Translations under genes and position numbers: made by a program
Assembly: GCA_030608385.1 (NCBI GenBank)
Contig: JAUWEG010000002.1
Location: 28,879 to 52,878 of the forward strand
DNA from: Candidatus Heimdallarchaeota archaeon
Lineage (GTDB): Archaea; Asgardarchaeota; Heimdallarchaeia; Heimdallarchaeales; Heimdallarchaeaceae
Length of the DNA: 24,000 nt
Reading direction: 5' to 3'
Notes under the pieces: model-generated
Seen by the model: the letters and a program-made list of their open reading frames with translations, nothing else
What the model was told of the DNA's origin: nothing
Databases searched by the model: none
Shown: piece by piece, positions 11,132 through 14,994 of the stretch
Layout: every line of letters starts with the position of its first letter
Numbering within the stretch: the stretch's first letter is position 1

Positions 11132-11752
11132 TTAATTTTTTTCTGTTTCTTCTTTGATTTCTTCTTCAGAATCTTCAGCTAATTCTTCATCATCAAAGAA
11201 AAGCATACTATCTAGAACTGTATCAAGCAAGGGTCTTTCTGGCGGAGACATTGATTTTGTTACTGAATCAGCTATTCCTATTTCCAAAGAAGAAAGATCT
11301 GCTTTGGGACCTCTAGGTCTTTGTGTGATTACCCCTGTAGATTGTATTCGCTCAATCATACTTTTCATTGAAGAGATTTCTTCTTTCAGTTCCTTAAAAA
11401 CAGTAATATCTTCAAGTTTATCAAGTAATTTATCCACTTTTTCAATTTCTTTCTGGGTTTTTTGTTCAAATTTCTTACCATTTTCAATGATTCTAGCTAA
11501 TCTACCATCCGTAACAGGAGTATTTATCCCAGAAGCCGTTTTCACTCCTCTGGAGACTGTTGACGCCATCTGCATTCTAAAATCATCCAACGAGCCGAAC
11601 ATCTCCTTATGATGTGCCTTGATAGACTCTAAAACTGCTTTATCATTATTCCCATAGTATGAAACCAAATCCTGCAACATATCGAAGAACTCAAGAGGAA
11701 TGGGGATTTCAATAATTCGAGCAACTTTTTGAGTTCTATGTTCATCATACAT
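11132..11752 (-). CDS. Hypothetical protein: possible ribbon-helix-helix-like N-terminus, coiled-coil middle, acidic C-terminal tail
   Basis: 206 aa. KVARIIEIPIPLEFFDMLQDLVSYYG..AVLESIKAHH has a strand-helix-helix pattern. The tail is LFFDDEELAEDSEEEIKEETEKN. The antisense 152-aa ORF is Ser-rich and low-complexity, so this strand is preferred. Confidence 0.55.
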   Translation of the reverse strand: MYDEHRTQKVARIIEIPIPLEFFDMLQDLVSYYGNNDKAVLESIKAHHKEMFGSLDDFRMQMASTVSRGVKTASGINTPVTDGRLARIIENGKKFEQKTQKEIEKVDKLLDKLEDITVFKELKEEISSMKSMIERIQSTGVITQRPRGPKADLSSLEIGIADSVTKSMSPPERPLLDTVLDSMLFFDDEELAEDSEEEIKEETEKN

Positions 11753-11899
11753 AAGATAACCTCAAGACAAAGCGTTCTTGTCTGTTATGTTTTGTTTTGA
11801 TTATTTAAAGTATTTTTTGGCAAGAGACTTAATTCAAAGTGATAAAAATTAAAATTAATAAAAGAAGAAATTTAAAAACTCAAAAGGTAAGATATCTCA

Positions 11900-12022
11900 A
11901 TGAATACTGGAAAAAAAACTATTTTAGCATGTGTAGCACACCCTGATGATGAAATTGGGTGTATAGGTACTTTAGTTAACAATGTAGGGAAGGGAGATAG
12001 AGTCGATAAAATGGAAAAGTAA
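11900..12022 (+). pseudogene. Truncated 5' fragment (40 codons) of a PIG-L/LmbE deacetylase gene
   Basis: Translates as MNTGKKTILACVAHPDDEIGCIGTLVNNVGKGDRV, then DKMEK and a stop. Residues 5-35 align codon-for-codon with residues 5-35 of the full-length deacetylase counted from its ATG at 14287. Homology ends abruptly at 12004. Confidence 0.65.
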
Positions 12023-12053
12023 TCTACTACCAATTAGAAAAAGGTTATCTTAT

Positions 12054-12437
12054 TCATTCGTCTACAAGGATGAACTCTGTAAGAAGTTTTTGTTGAGATA
12101 AAAGTGTTCCTTCCTTAAGTTTCTTAATATCATTTATTATCCTTGATATTGTTCTTCTATTTCCCTCTGTAGTTTTGTGTTTTAATTGTTCTACTAATTC
12201 ATCACTAGAAATAAAAACAAAGTTCTCCTTAGAGTCAATTTCTATTGGTGTTTCTATATTCAAGCACCAAAAAATAACCTTGCTAGCATATTGAGGATAA
12301 ATGACTGAATCTTTAAATGTTAAAATATAAGGTGACTTCTTAACTTCGATAATCTCAAATGACCCATCGGTTTTTTCTATAAGTATTTCAGGTACTATCC
12401 AGTTTTTTCCTCCAAAATCTGGAGTTTCAATCTTTGG
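12054..12437 (-). other. 127-codon open frame directly in frame with, and separated by one TAA from, the zinc-ribbon repeat gene; PD-(D/E)xK nuclease-like motifs
   Basis: My translation after the TAA (complement of 12438-12440) reads PKIETPDFGGKNWIVPEILIEKTDGSFEIIEVKKSPYILTF...NRRTISRIINDIKKLKEG.... TPDF ... EVK matches the PD...(D/E)xK pattern. The track only called the last 69 aa from an internal TTG. Confidence 0.45.
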
Positions 12438-14057
12438 TTACCAAAACCATTTTTCTTCTTTTAAAAGCTGTTGAGCAATTCGATGGCAGATTCTTTCCCA
12501 GAGATATCCTATTAGCTCTACATCACCTAGATTACAATATGGACAACCTGTTGCTCTACGACTTGTTCTGTTATGCGGAGATGTTTTCCATTCATGATCT
12601 GGGTCCTTATCACATTTCCACCAATATCTTTTAGCAGACCCTGCAACGACTTTATCAGGTGTAATCTTCCCATTCTTTTCTTGGTACCATTCTTTAGCTA
12701 GGTCAGGATAGAGTGAGGCTAAGGAATTAGTGACTGAAACCTTCTGTCCAGCACAAAAAGGACAACCACCTCCTGAACTTCTGATTCGATTAGATAGCGA
12801 TGTTTTCCATTCATGGTCTGGACCCTTATCACACTTCCACCAAAATAGTTTCCCCGAGCCTACAACGACTTTATCTGGTGTAATTTCCCCATTCTTTTCT
12901 TGGTACCATTCTTTAGCTAGGTCAGGATGGAGTGAGGCTAAGGAATTAGTGACTGAAACCTTCTGTCCAGCACAAAAAGGACAACCACCACCTGAACTTC
13001 TGGTTCGATTAGCTAGTGTTGCTTTCCACACATGGTCTGATCCTTTATCGCACTTCCACCAAAAATATTTGCTGGATTTTGCTGTAATTTTATCTGGAGT
13101 AATTTCCCCATTCTTTTCTTGGCGCCATTCTTTAGCTAATTCAGGATAACAAGAAGCTAAGGAATTAGTGACTGAAACCTTTTGCCCAGAACAAAAAGGA
13201 CAACCTCTTTTTTGATTCGTTCTTGTATTTGGAGTTGCTTTCCACACATGGTCTGGTCCTTTATCGCACTTCCACCAATATAATTGTCCCGAGCCTGCAA
13301 CGACCTTATCAGGTGTAGTGTCTCCATTCCTTTCTTGGTGCCATTCTTTAGCTAATTCGGAATAACAAGAAGCTAAAGAATTAGTGACTGATAGCTTAAG
13401 GTTTTGGCAGAAAGGGCATCCTGATTTAGTTTTTCCGGTCCTATGTCCTACTTTTGTTTTCCATATGTGATCTGGGCCCTTATCACAGCTCCACCAATAT
13501 GCTTTACTTGTGTTAAATTTCACCATTTCTGGAGTAATTTTTCCATTTTTCTCTTGAAACCATTCATCAATTAATTCAGGAAACACAGTTGACAGAGAAT
13601 TTGTTATAGAAAGCTTTTTTCCTTCACAAAAAGGACATCCGGTCTTTCTCTTTCCTGTTCTATTTCTTATTTCTGTTTTCCATATGTGATCTGGGCCCTC
13701 ATCACAGCTCCACCATACGCTCTTGTGAGAACCAGTTATAACCATGTTTGGTTTTAATTCTTGATTTTTTGTTGGATGCCATTGTTTTGCTAGTCCTGGA
13801 TGAATTGATGCTAAAGAATTAGTGACAGAAGGTTTAAGACCGCGACAAAAGGGACATCTTGTTCTCTTGTAAGTTCTTGCTTCTACTGTGGTTTCCCATA
13901 CATGATCTGGTCCCCTATCACATTTCCACCAAACTTTCTTTTTTGACCACATAGAGGTGTTTTCTGGTTTAAAATCCCCATTTTTTGTTGGATGCCATTG
14001 CTTTGCTAGTTCAGGAAAATCAATTACAAATTTGGGCTTATCTCTATTTTTTGACAT
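12438..14057 (-). CDS. Tandem-repeat zinc-ribbon (treble-clef-like, C-H-C-C) protein with 7 repeats
   Basis: 539 aa. Each unit reads about PELAKEW.QEKNG.ITPDKV...S....WWKCDKGPDH.WK.....R.....GCPFC.GQKVSVTNSLAS. From memory this resembles the Pfam family called probable zinc-ribbon domain (DUF4379), which needs confirmation. Confidence 0.75.
   Translation of the reverse strand: MSKNRDKPKFVIDFPELAKQWHPTKNGDFKPENTSMWSKKKVWWKCDRGPDHVWETTVEARTYKRTRCPFCRGLKPSVTNSLASIHPGLAKQWHPTKNQELKPNMVITGSHKSVWWSCDEGPDHIWKTEIRNRTGKRKTGCPFCEGKKLSITNSLSTVFPELIDEWFQEKNGKITPEMVKFNTSKAYWWSCDKGPDHIWKTKVGHRTGKTKSGCPFCQNLKLSVTNSLASCYSELAKEWHQERNGDTTPDKVVAGSGQLYWWKCDKGPDHVWKATPNTRTNQKRGCPFCSGQKVSVTNSLASCYPELAKEWRQEKNGEITPDKITAKSSKYFWWKCDKGSDHVWKATLANRTRSSGGGCPFCAGQKVSVTNSLASLHPDLAKEWYQEKNGEITPDKVVVGSGKLFWWKCDKGPDHEWKTSLSNRIRSSGGGCPFCAGQKVSVTNSLASLYPDLAKEWYQEKNGKITPDKVVAGSAKRYWWKCDKDPDHEWKTSPHNRTSRRATGCPYCNLGDVELIGYLWERICHRIAQQLLKEEKWFW
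12531..14018 (-). repeat. Seven in-frame tandem repeats of 216-219 nt (72-73 aa) inside the zinc-ribbon gene
   Basis: Units cover protein residues 14-85, 86-158, 159-231, 232-303, 304-376, 377-449 and 450 to about 509. The 54-nt string ggctaaggaattagtgactgaaaccttctgtccagcacaaaaaggacaaccacc occurs exactly at 12717 and 12936, an offset of 219 nt. Confidence 0.9.
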
Positions 14058-14250
14058 TAAACCAGACCTAGAATTTTATTTTCATGTATACTTATTAGAA
14101 TTTCATTCTTAAAGTCAACTTTCACTTTTGGCTTTAGTTCACTTAAGATTACTCGCTTTCTAATAGGATGTCTATATGTATTGTTATTGTCCTTCTACAG
14201 ATTGAGTAAATTTCAAACTCCTTTCCACAGATTTCTCTTGCTCTTCTTAG

Positions 14251-14994
14251 ATGAAATTTAAAAACACATACTCTTATTTTGTAGCAATGGTAGATGAAAA
14301 AAAAACAATCTTTGCATGTGTAGCACATCCAGATGATGAAATAGGGTGCATAGGAACACTTGTAAACCATGTTAACAGGGGTGATAAAGTGTTTCTGGCT
14401 TGGACAACTAGCGGTGAAATGGCCTCACATTTTAATGGAATGTCTTCTTCTGAAGTGAAAGAAATAAGAGAAAAACAAGGAAAAGATGTTGGGAAGATAA
14501 TTGGTTGTGAAACTCTTTTTCTAGAATATGGTGATACATCTGTGAGAGCTACAAGAGAAAGTGCGCTGAAAATGGCTAAAGTGATAGCTGAGGTCAAACC
14601 AGATGCAGTAGTAACATGGTCAATGAACACAAGACATCCAGATCACAGAGGAACTGCTCAAATACTCTATGATGCAATCACATATGCGCGTATTCCAAAA
14701 ATAACAGAACCGCTAGATCCTTATAGACCTCCACTTCATATTCCAATCTTCATGTATCATGAGGAAATATCACCTTTGCCAACGATCTACATAGATGTAA
14801 CTTCCTCTTTTGAGAAAGTTAAGGAAGTAGCTAAACTTTATGGTGATTTCTACAATTGGCAACAAGTTGATGATTGGTTAGATGTTAATCGACGATCCGA
14901 TGGAATGAAGTGTGGAGTAAAATATGCAGAAAAATTTAATGTTTTATCTAGATTTCTACCTGTTGAGAAACATTTACCTATAAACAAATCTTAG
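14251..14994 (+). CDS. PIG-L/LmbE-family N-acetylglucosaminyl deacetylase
   Basis: Contains ACVAHPDDEIGCIGT (AHPDDE motif) and TRHPDHRGTAQ (HxDH motif). The true start is more likely the ATG at 14287 (MVDEKKTIFACVAHPDDE), because family members begin just before AHPDDE and the truncated copy at 11900 aligns from that ATG. Confidence 0.8.
   Translation: MKFKNTYSYFVAMVDEKKTIFACVAHPDDEIGCIGTLVNHVNRGDKVFLAWTTSGEMASHFNGMSSSEVKEIREKQGKDVGKIIGCETLFLEYGDTSVRATRESALKMAKVIAEVKPDAVVTWSMNTRHPDHRGTAQILYDAITYARIPKITEPLDPYRPPLHIPIFMYHEEISPLPTIYIDVTSSFEKVKEVAKLYGDFYNWQQVDDWLDVNRRSDGMKCGVKYAEKFNVLSRFLPVEKHLPINKS

Follow-up and report, generated by a model that had tools for sequence, protein, structure and literature searches.

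A probable horizontally acquired nuclease cassette that replaced the start of a PIG-L/LmbE deacetylase gene in a Heimdallarchaeota chromosome

Why does the gene for a PIG-L/LmbE deacetylase begin twice, about 2.4 kb apart, in the chromosome of a Candidatus Heimdallarchaeota archaeon? This question is raised by a stretch of 24,000 nucleotides (nt) (contig JAUWEG010000002.1 of assembly GCA_030608385.1, positions 28,879 to 52,878), which is termed the window and to whose numbering the coordinates below refer unless another contig is named. In the window, the intact deacetylase gene (14287-14994; PF02585, E 3e-24) is preceded by a stub, which is a 40-codon open reading frame (ORF) at 11900-12022 that repeats the deacetylase start, and a single minus-strand gene (12054-14057) for a zinc-finger array with a predicted nuclease domain lies between the two gene-start copies. 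The initial annotation of the window described this arrangement, with only a zinc-ribbon repeat/nuclease gene on the opposite strand between the copies and with no visible integrase or transposase, and proposed that a mobile or horizontally acquired cassette recombined into the 5' end of the deacetylase gene, supplied its own version of this end and left the displaced native end as a stub. The layout is found to be as described, and the analysis reported here makes it highly probable that the block is a horizontally acquired cassette that replaced the deacetylase start.

The 93-nt blocks at 11912-12004 and 14299-14391 are aligned without gaps and are identical at 72 of the 93 positions. The earlier count of 21 mismatches, with 13 synonymous and 5 non-synonymous codon changes, is reproduced. 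When the two flanks of the insert are compared with each other by BLASTN, they match with E values of 3e-15 and 9e-19, indicating that the repeat is not due to chance. A promoter-like box, AGA(A/T)GAAATTTAAAAAC, also belongs to the repeat; it is located at 11863-11882 and 14249-14268, is 90% identical between these two positions, and shares the offset of the gene-start repeat (2386-2387 nt). All intergenic regions of close orthologues contain this deacetylase box. As a diverged gene segment of ~140 nt, the flanking repeat is unlike a short exact target-site duplication. Neither terminal inverted repeats nor a transposase ORF or recombinase gene is found in the insert, which consists of a single gene, and an identical attachment (att) core is not found either, the repeats being 78-90% identical without a long exact stretch. 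A search of 11600-14600 against Rfam for intron-like RNAs gives no match. The GC content of the insert is modestly higher (0.38-0.42 versus 0.30-0.35), and is not used as evidence because it results from the Cys/Gly/Trp/Pro-rich coding of the fingers.

The stub, rather than the start of the intact gene, matches the host clade. Residues 1-27 of the stub (MNTGKKTILACVAHPDDEIGCIGTLVN) are identical to those of G024 and G013, two of the closest relatives, and the stub is identical to G013 at 97 of 104 nt (93%), as against 78 of 104 nt (75%) to its own intact copy. In the tree of nt 1-150 of the gene, the stub is placed inside the clade of G013, G024 and G010 with support values of 100/99, and the 5' ends of the intact gene and of the G012 gene are placed outside this clade on long branches. 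Compared with the intact 5' end, the stub shows a synonymous divergence (dS) of 1.17, with a ratio of non-synonymous divergence (dN) to dS (omega) of 0.16. Between the stub and G013, dS is 0.21 and dN is 0.038, which is no more than ordinary species divergence, suggesting that the stub is young. These results identify the stub as the native 5' end, which was displaced together with its promoter and comprises the first 35 codons of the gene. A closer paralogue was considered as the source of the stub and was rejected, because none is found in a search of the genome, in which the nearest other PIG-L gene is 34% identical.

The first 150-180 nt of the working gene are 17-22% divergent, as compared with 2-5% downstream, and the dS value of the deacetylase is 0.6-1.25 in this 5' tract versus 0.05-0.2 downstream. 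When the intact gene is compared with that of G018, 26 of 150 positions are mismatched at nt 1-150 and 10 of 525 positions at nt 181-705 (Fisher p 6e-11); between G024 and G013, the divergence is uniform at 6% in both parts of the gene. In the tree of nt 301-705, the window, G018, G012, G024 and G013 form a tight clade (98/99). The mismatch gradient, counted per 30 nt, places the end of the diverged tract at around nt 150-180 of the gene (14436-14466), so that this tract extends beyond the repeat to about codon 50-60. These results indicate that the 5' end of the working gene is foreign and is joined in phase to a native-like remainder, and that the displaced native terminus is the one that is closer to the relatives. 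The earlier proposal that the cassette brought its own gene start is therefore retained, with its extent refined: the promoter-like box is brought in as well, and the replaced tract reaches to around nt 150-180.

The deacetylase was used to search 40 related genomes, and the locus was fetched from 22 same-genus genomes, all relatives being metagenome-assembled genomes (MAGs). The site is empty in 21 of the 22 genomes, in which the deacetylase adjoins the 206-aa gene and starts 143-156 nt from it, and the segment of ~2.39 kb (12005 to ~14391, with the diverged tract continuing to ~14466) is missing. The gene order at the empty site is 103-aa gene, small GTPase, 206-aa gene (minus strand), deacetylase, 130-aa gene, ubiquitin and E1. 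Synteny is restored immediately on both sides of the 2.4-kb insert, the neighbours of which are chromosomal Asgard genes, and the side of the 206-aa gene is 95% identical in nt sequence to G012 up to 11955. Among the 22 relatives, only G012 has a DUF4379 gene at the deacetylase locus, and no further occupied loci are found in a scan of metagenome contigs. Close relatives therefore differ in whether this one locus is occupied, the empty site being clean, and an old arrangement shared by the relatives with identical stubs, which the initial annotation had considered, is not what is found. The empty sites, the native stub and the foreign 5' tract together support the proposal that an acquired cassette recombined into the 5' end of the deacetylase gene.

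The deacetylase itself appears to be dispensable in the genus, because that of G011 (L063, G011:C168, 2972-3428) is a truncated, frameshifted pseudogene and no orthologue is found in genome-wide searches of G001 and G023. At the empty site of G010 (L037, G010:C2), the gene is inactivated by a 13-nt frameshifting deletion (nt 109-121 of the deacetylase) with CT microhomology at its flanks, and this deletion is located 4 nt from the insertion junction of the window. Between the deacetylase and the 130-aa gene, an extra stretch of ~1.6 kb (L025, L026, L029, L032, L038 and L040) or ~3.7 kb (L035) is present in more distant members of the genus, and is absent from the clade of the window. On the left flank and over most of the deacetylase, G018 (L023, G018:C224, 2-1001) and the window are 98-99% identical. 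The ubiquitin gene of G018 shows a divergence of 0.375 at four-fold sites and its E1 protein is only 80% identical to that of the window, which marks another sharp recombination boundary downstream. At the 5' end of the G018 gene, nt 1-27 are native-like and nt 42-92 are cassette-like. This pattern was considered as a scar of cassette loss through recombination between the repeats; this is possible, and it was not adopted because many of the cassette-type states are ancestral states of the genus.

G012 represents another species, in which this locus is occupied by a deeply diverged copy of the cassette. Between the window and G012, dS is 0.15 (omega 0.10) for six flank genes, 0.49-1.17 (omega 0.09-0.20) for the nuclease gene, 1.26 (omega 0.04) for nt 1-150 of the deacetylase, 0.66 (omega 0.20) for nt 151-300, and 0.11 (omega 0.06) for nt 301-705. 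This island of high dS at the nuclease gene and the adjoining gene start indicates that this segment is several times older than the surrounding genomes, and the low omega values indicate that the nuclease gene is under purifying selection and has been kept functional. The flank that adjoins the nuclease gene thus has the form of a co-converted donor tract, which is diverged to around nt 150-180 in the window and to around nt 270-300 in G012, with near-identity beyond. The left junctions also differ: the stub ends at nt 104 in the window, before 49 unique nt, and at nt 57 in G012, before 70 unrelated nt. The 49-nt spacer (12005-12053) has no match in any relative, in its 70-nt counterpart of G012 or elsewhere in the genome, and the search for the origin of the 70-nt spacer gives no match anywhere. 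Both stubs are of the native type and differ at only 1 of 57 positions. The simplest explanation for young stubs next to old, diverged cassettes is that the two cassettes arrived separately and recently, and came from different donors.

The cargo gene encodes seven DUF4379 modules (PF14311, 431 bits against a cut-off of 24.5, E 2.9e-132), followed by a C-terminal domain of 158 residues, to which no family of Pfam or PHROGs is matched. A full HMMER scan of 1.84 billion representative proteins yields only 41 relatives of this domain. It is present in 23 of the 83 genomes of the class and in 3 of its 18 genera, and 21 of these 23 genomes belong to the genus of the window. Other members have this domain behind arrays of C2H2 fingers, DUF6011 or helix-turn-helix domains, suggesting that the targeting module is exchangeable. 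In an alignment of 23 members, P47 and K64 are invariant, and E/D48 and D/E62 as well as W11-E12 and K73-D74 are conserved, so that the acidic residues and the lysine of PD-(D/E)XK-type enzymes are present in the arrangement E...P(E/D)...(D/E)xK. The AF2 model of the domain (pLDDT 89, pTM 0.83) has the order H-E-E-E-H-E, which agrees with the alpha-beta-beta-beta-alpha-beta core of the PD-(D/E)XK superfamily, and the top matches in a Foldseek search of the PDB are all PD-(D/E)XK nucleases (McrC, EcoO109I, MspJI, NucS, AvaII and VRR_NUC), with weak E values of 2e-3 to 6e-2. The C-terminal region is therefore read as a predicted nuclease domain behind an exchangeable DNA-binding array. The cargo would then be a DNA-binding-array nuclease with the architecture of a homing endonuclease, for which an integrase is probably unnecessary. 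The array has 1 to 7 modules among the relatives, and the two modules of the window that are nearest to the nuclease domain are 84% identical; the DUF4379 array grows and shrinks through repeat recombination.

The DUF4379-nuclease gene is found in at least three genomic contexts. The G013 copy adjoins a gene for a TnpB-like protein of 633 aa (L052, G013:C12, 9599-11500), homologues of which, with 35-40% identity, are encoded in the genome of the window on C89 and C88. In G001 and in two metagenome contigs, the gene lies beside a divergent gene for a protein of 227-233 aa (L057 7799-8500, L061 1-378 and L062 3-683). This partner, which occurs in three unrelated contexts with a mutual identity of 46-51%, has a SAP-like N-terminus and a possible D...ExK motif, and is absent from the genome of the window; the two genes may form a two-gene module. 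The version of the nuclease gene on metagenome contig L062 (856-1548) encodes 230 aa, is 81% identical in nt sequence to that of the window, and has one DUF4379 module instead of seven. The segment 14058-14114 of the window is also matched on this contig, in which the nuclease gene is located at a different locus, suggesting that the nuclease gene takes these ~57 nt with it to other loci.

The C-terminal domain is also found behind fingers of the C2H2 type. The genome of the window encodes on C190 (50605-51786; L056 4605-5786, plus strand) a protein of 393 aa with about eight C2H2 fingers and the same nuclease domain. This gene is intact and is located directly after those for ribosomal proteins S13, S4 and S11, a position that is kept genus-wide, and its product is 59-89% identical between species, that of S11 being 97-100% identical. 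Seven C2H2-type paralogues were at one point regarded as pseudogenes with one stop inside, and this assignment was withdrawn because the stops are the natural gene ends. The proteins P0006, P0004/P0043, P0008 and P0010, from MAGs labelled Candidatus Heimdallarchaeota or Candidatus Hodarchaeales, have canonical, eukaryote-like C2H2 arrays with HTGE(K/R)PY linkers fused to the same PD-(D/E)XK domain, which is a natural zinc-finger-nuclease architecture.

The assembly of the locus was compared with public reads. The region is covered by Logan unitigs from two cold-seep runs, which show at most one difference from it and extend across both junctions (11862-12698 and 12960-14477 in run X2; 11942-12439 and 12960-14343 in run X1), so that the region is not an assembly chimera, a possibility that the initial annotation had raised. 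Position 12440 is polymorphic (A/G) in these reads. The G allele, which gives CAA (Gln) instead of the in-frame TAA of the assembly, is the sole state in run X2 (depth 13.8 of 13.8) and accounts for about half of the depth in run X1 (4.5 of 9.2), and G012 also has CAA at this position. An intact allele of 667 codons therefore exists, and the nonsense allele has arisen recently. It follows that the nuclease gene is split by a nonsense mutation that is segregating, and not by recoding or by design. At position 13123, both cold-seep runs have T and the window has C, so that one finger module has His in the runs instead of Arg in its EW(R/H)QEKNG motif; His is the repeat consensus of the modules at this codon. 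Loose unitig ends in runs X2 and X3 carry stub sequence that runs straight into gene sequence of the G018 type and of the G013 type, indicating that empty-site relatives live in the same sediments. The features of the locus are summarized in Table 1.

Table 1. Positions of the features at the deacetylase locus of the window
Feature	Position	Strand	Remark
206-aa gene, native left flank	11132..11752	-	Divergent from the deacetylase in empty-site relatives
Native promoter-like box AGAAGAAATTTAAAAACTCA of the deacetylase, which would now drive only the stub	11863..11882	+	Left copy of direct repeat D6
Stub, putative displaced native deacetylase 5' end, 40-codon ORF	11900..12022	+	Homology to orthologues stops at ~12003
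49-nt spacer at the left junction, between stub and nuclease stop codon	12005..12053	no strand	Matches nothing found
Predicted PD-(D/E)XK-like C-terminal nuclease domain of the cargo gene	12054..12530	-	In-frame TAA at 12438-12440 in the assembly
Seven-module DUF4379 treble-clef zinc-finger array and start of the cargo gene, 219-nt repeats	12531..14057	-	PF14311; repeat families D1-D3
Element-borne intergenic region	14058..14249	no strand	Homologous to the G012 counterpart, 79% over 134 nt
Element-borne promoter-like box AGATGAAATTTAAAAACACA of the deacetylase	14249..14268	+	Right copy of direct repeat D6; common to G012
Putative foreign 5' tract of the working deacetylase, codons 1 to ~50-60, fused in frame to the resident gene	14287..14466	+	Assigned by divergence
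Resident, apparently native remainder of the PIG-L/LmbE deacetylase	14467..14994	+	PF02585; tree of nt 301-705

How the cassette entered is less certain than that it did. It is moderately likely that it is a free-standing homing-type endonuclease cassette, in which the nuclease drives the process and brings a replacement gene start. According to this mechanism, the nuclease would recognize and cut the native allele in the region from the conserved AHPDDEIGC motif through around nt 120. The right end of the break would be resected and repaired by copying a cassette-bearing donor, giving co-conversion tracts of variable length, and the left end would be joined without homology, leaving the native start behind as a stub with its end close to the break. 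The donor gene start, which differs mostly at synonymous sites, would preserve the enzyme and make the occupied allele uncuttable. Purifying selection on the nuclease gene together with the segregating nonsense allele fits the cycle of gain, decay and loss that is predicted for such elements. The several genomic contexts of the gene, the intact allele in the reads and the empty-site relatives of the same sediments agree with mobility and activity in the population. The 13-nt deletion of G010 is the type of scar that is expected from imprecise repair at a cut site and, as a single case, gives a hint in this direction. Several points weigh against this homing reading. Homing between alleles that are homologous on both sides makes no new stub, so that an illegitimate join on the left has to be assumed, and the cleavage activity and the target site are predictions. 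The Foldseek matches are weak (E 2e-3 to 1e-1, TM 0.3-0.45). Only two occupied genomes are available, the copy of G012 is split over two contigs that both end in finger repeats, and the relatives are represented by MAGs throughout. Approximately unbiased (AU) topology tests of the 150-nt 5' segment do not reject the placement of the intact 5' end in the native clade (p 0.25-0.29), so that the assignment of this end as foreign depends on divergence levels and not on topology, and its phylogenetic incongruence is not claimed as proven.

Two further points of this kind, the lack of a gene-end duplication at the other loci (G001, G013 and the C190 copy of the genome of the window) and the pairing of three copies with the conserved 227-233-aa neighbour, which could mean a cellular or defence role, lead to the main rival explanation, namely that the nuclease gene is passive cargo. 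In this case, ordinary recombination with a related species that already held the nuclease gene next to its deacetylase, with the right end exchanged by homologous crossover within the gene and the left end joined illegitimately, would have carried over a defence or housekeeping gene that is not the cause of the event. The C2H2-type paralogue, which is intact, fixed after rpS11 across the genus and looks resident, agrees with such a role, as does the commonness of local recombination mosaics, the E1 and ubiquitin genes of G018 being far more diverged than its left flank. This explanation is nevertheless rather unlikely, because two diverged copies entered one gene within the same 50 nt, each with its own junction, the divergence peaks exactly beside the nuclease gene, an empty-site relative has its microhomology deletion at the same spot, and the architecture fits homing endonucleases. 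The initial annotation compared the block with integrative elements that target a gene and restore it, and restoration of the end of the target gene and a displaced partial copy are indeed typical of such elements, for which the ~140-nt homology block could be the att region. A remnant of an integrase-type element that later lost its recombinase and most of its other sequence is quite improbable, because no recombinase gene, terminal repeats or identical core is present between copies that are only 78% identical, synteny resumes at once on both sides of an insert of only 2.4 kb, the junction of G012 is located at a different position, and a foreign tract that passes the repeat with a gradient is a signature of recombination and not of a fixed crossover point. 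The direct repeats that flank the insert might also suggest that a local tandem duplicate has diverged, or that the assembly is at fault, and both are very improbable: the stub is closer to its orthologues (93%) than to its own partner (75%), the initial annotation having argued against a decaying local duplicate from the pattern of codon changes, and both the junction-spanning unitigs of two independent runs and the same organization in an independent MAG (G012) speak against an artefact.

The homing reading can be compared with three described systems, of which the mobile endonuclease ORFs (mORFs) of fungal mitochondria are the closest. In these mORFs (atp6 of Allomyces macrogynus; atp6, atp9, cox2 and nad3 of Glomus sp.), an endonuclease gene brings a foreign C-terminus of the host gene and displaces the native one (PMC3630166). 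The locus of the window is similar to these in that a predicted endonuclease gene arrives with a foreign gene terminus joined in phase, and in that the native terminus is kept as a fragment that is much closer to the relatives than the inserted copy. It differs from them in that the 5' end and promoter are replaced rather than the 3' end, that the nuclease gene is encoded on the opposite strand, unfused to the host gene, and that the host is an archaeal chromosome instead of an organelle, with a zinc-finger-array PD-(D/E)XK protein, in which Pfam detects DUF4379 only, instead of a LAGLIDADG or GIY-YIG endonuclease. Intronless homing is carried out by free-standing phage endonucleases, such as the Seg and Mob proteins of T4 (PMC2988022). 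As in T4, a free-standing gene, here for a predicted nuclease, adjoins a gene whose allele differs in nuclease-free relatives, the flank is co-converted with a variable tract length, and presence or absence is polymorphic among close relatives. In contrast, the classical phage cases leave no displaced stub and occur during co-infection between phage genomes, and cleavage is demonstrated for them, whereas it is predicted here, in a cellular chromosome. Homing endonucleases of phage group II introns have 3-5 CapR/DUF4379/DUF723-like modules and a C-terminal EDxHD/Vsr-like nuclease (PMC12350094). The protein of the window likewise consists of DUF4379-like zinc modules of ~60 aa followed by a small, predicted C-terminal nuclease of the restriction-endonuclease-like fold, but this C-terminal domain is without a Pfam family and has the motif E...P(E/D)...(D/E)xK instead of EDxHD, and the gene is free-standing rather than intron-borne, as the lack of an Rfam match indicates. 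What sets the locus apart from the described systems is the replacement of a 5' end with its promoter, the Asgard archaeal host and the nuclease family.

A wider proposal can be put forward tentatively. Heimdall-type Asgard archaea may possess an undescribed natural "zinc-finger nuclease" family, in which exchangeable DUF4379 or C2H2 arrays are combined with a private PD-(D/E)XK domain, and at least the DUF4379 branch of this family may be a home-and-rescue selfish element of cellular chromosomes, which would cut the sequence for the catalytic HPDD motif of the PIG-L deacetylase and spread linked to a recoded, uncuttable gene start and promoter. Should the nuclease prove to be cargo only, the locus remains a cleanly resolved example in which recombination between species replaced a gene start. 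If the nuclease is the driver, the locus would extend invasion by an endonuclease with a replacement gene end, without intron or intein, a strategy known from fungal mitochondria, to an Asgard chromosome and to the promoter-proximal end of a gene. In that case it would also add a new nuclease family that is built like engineered zinc-finger nucleases, with one to seven finger units among close relatives, from which programmable DNA binders or cutters could be drawn. These proteins would likewise provide a tractable marker of gene flow among Heimdallarchaeial species in shared cold-seep sediments.

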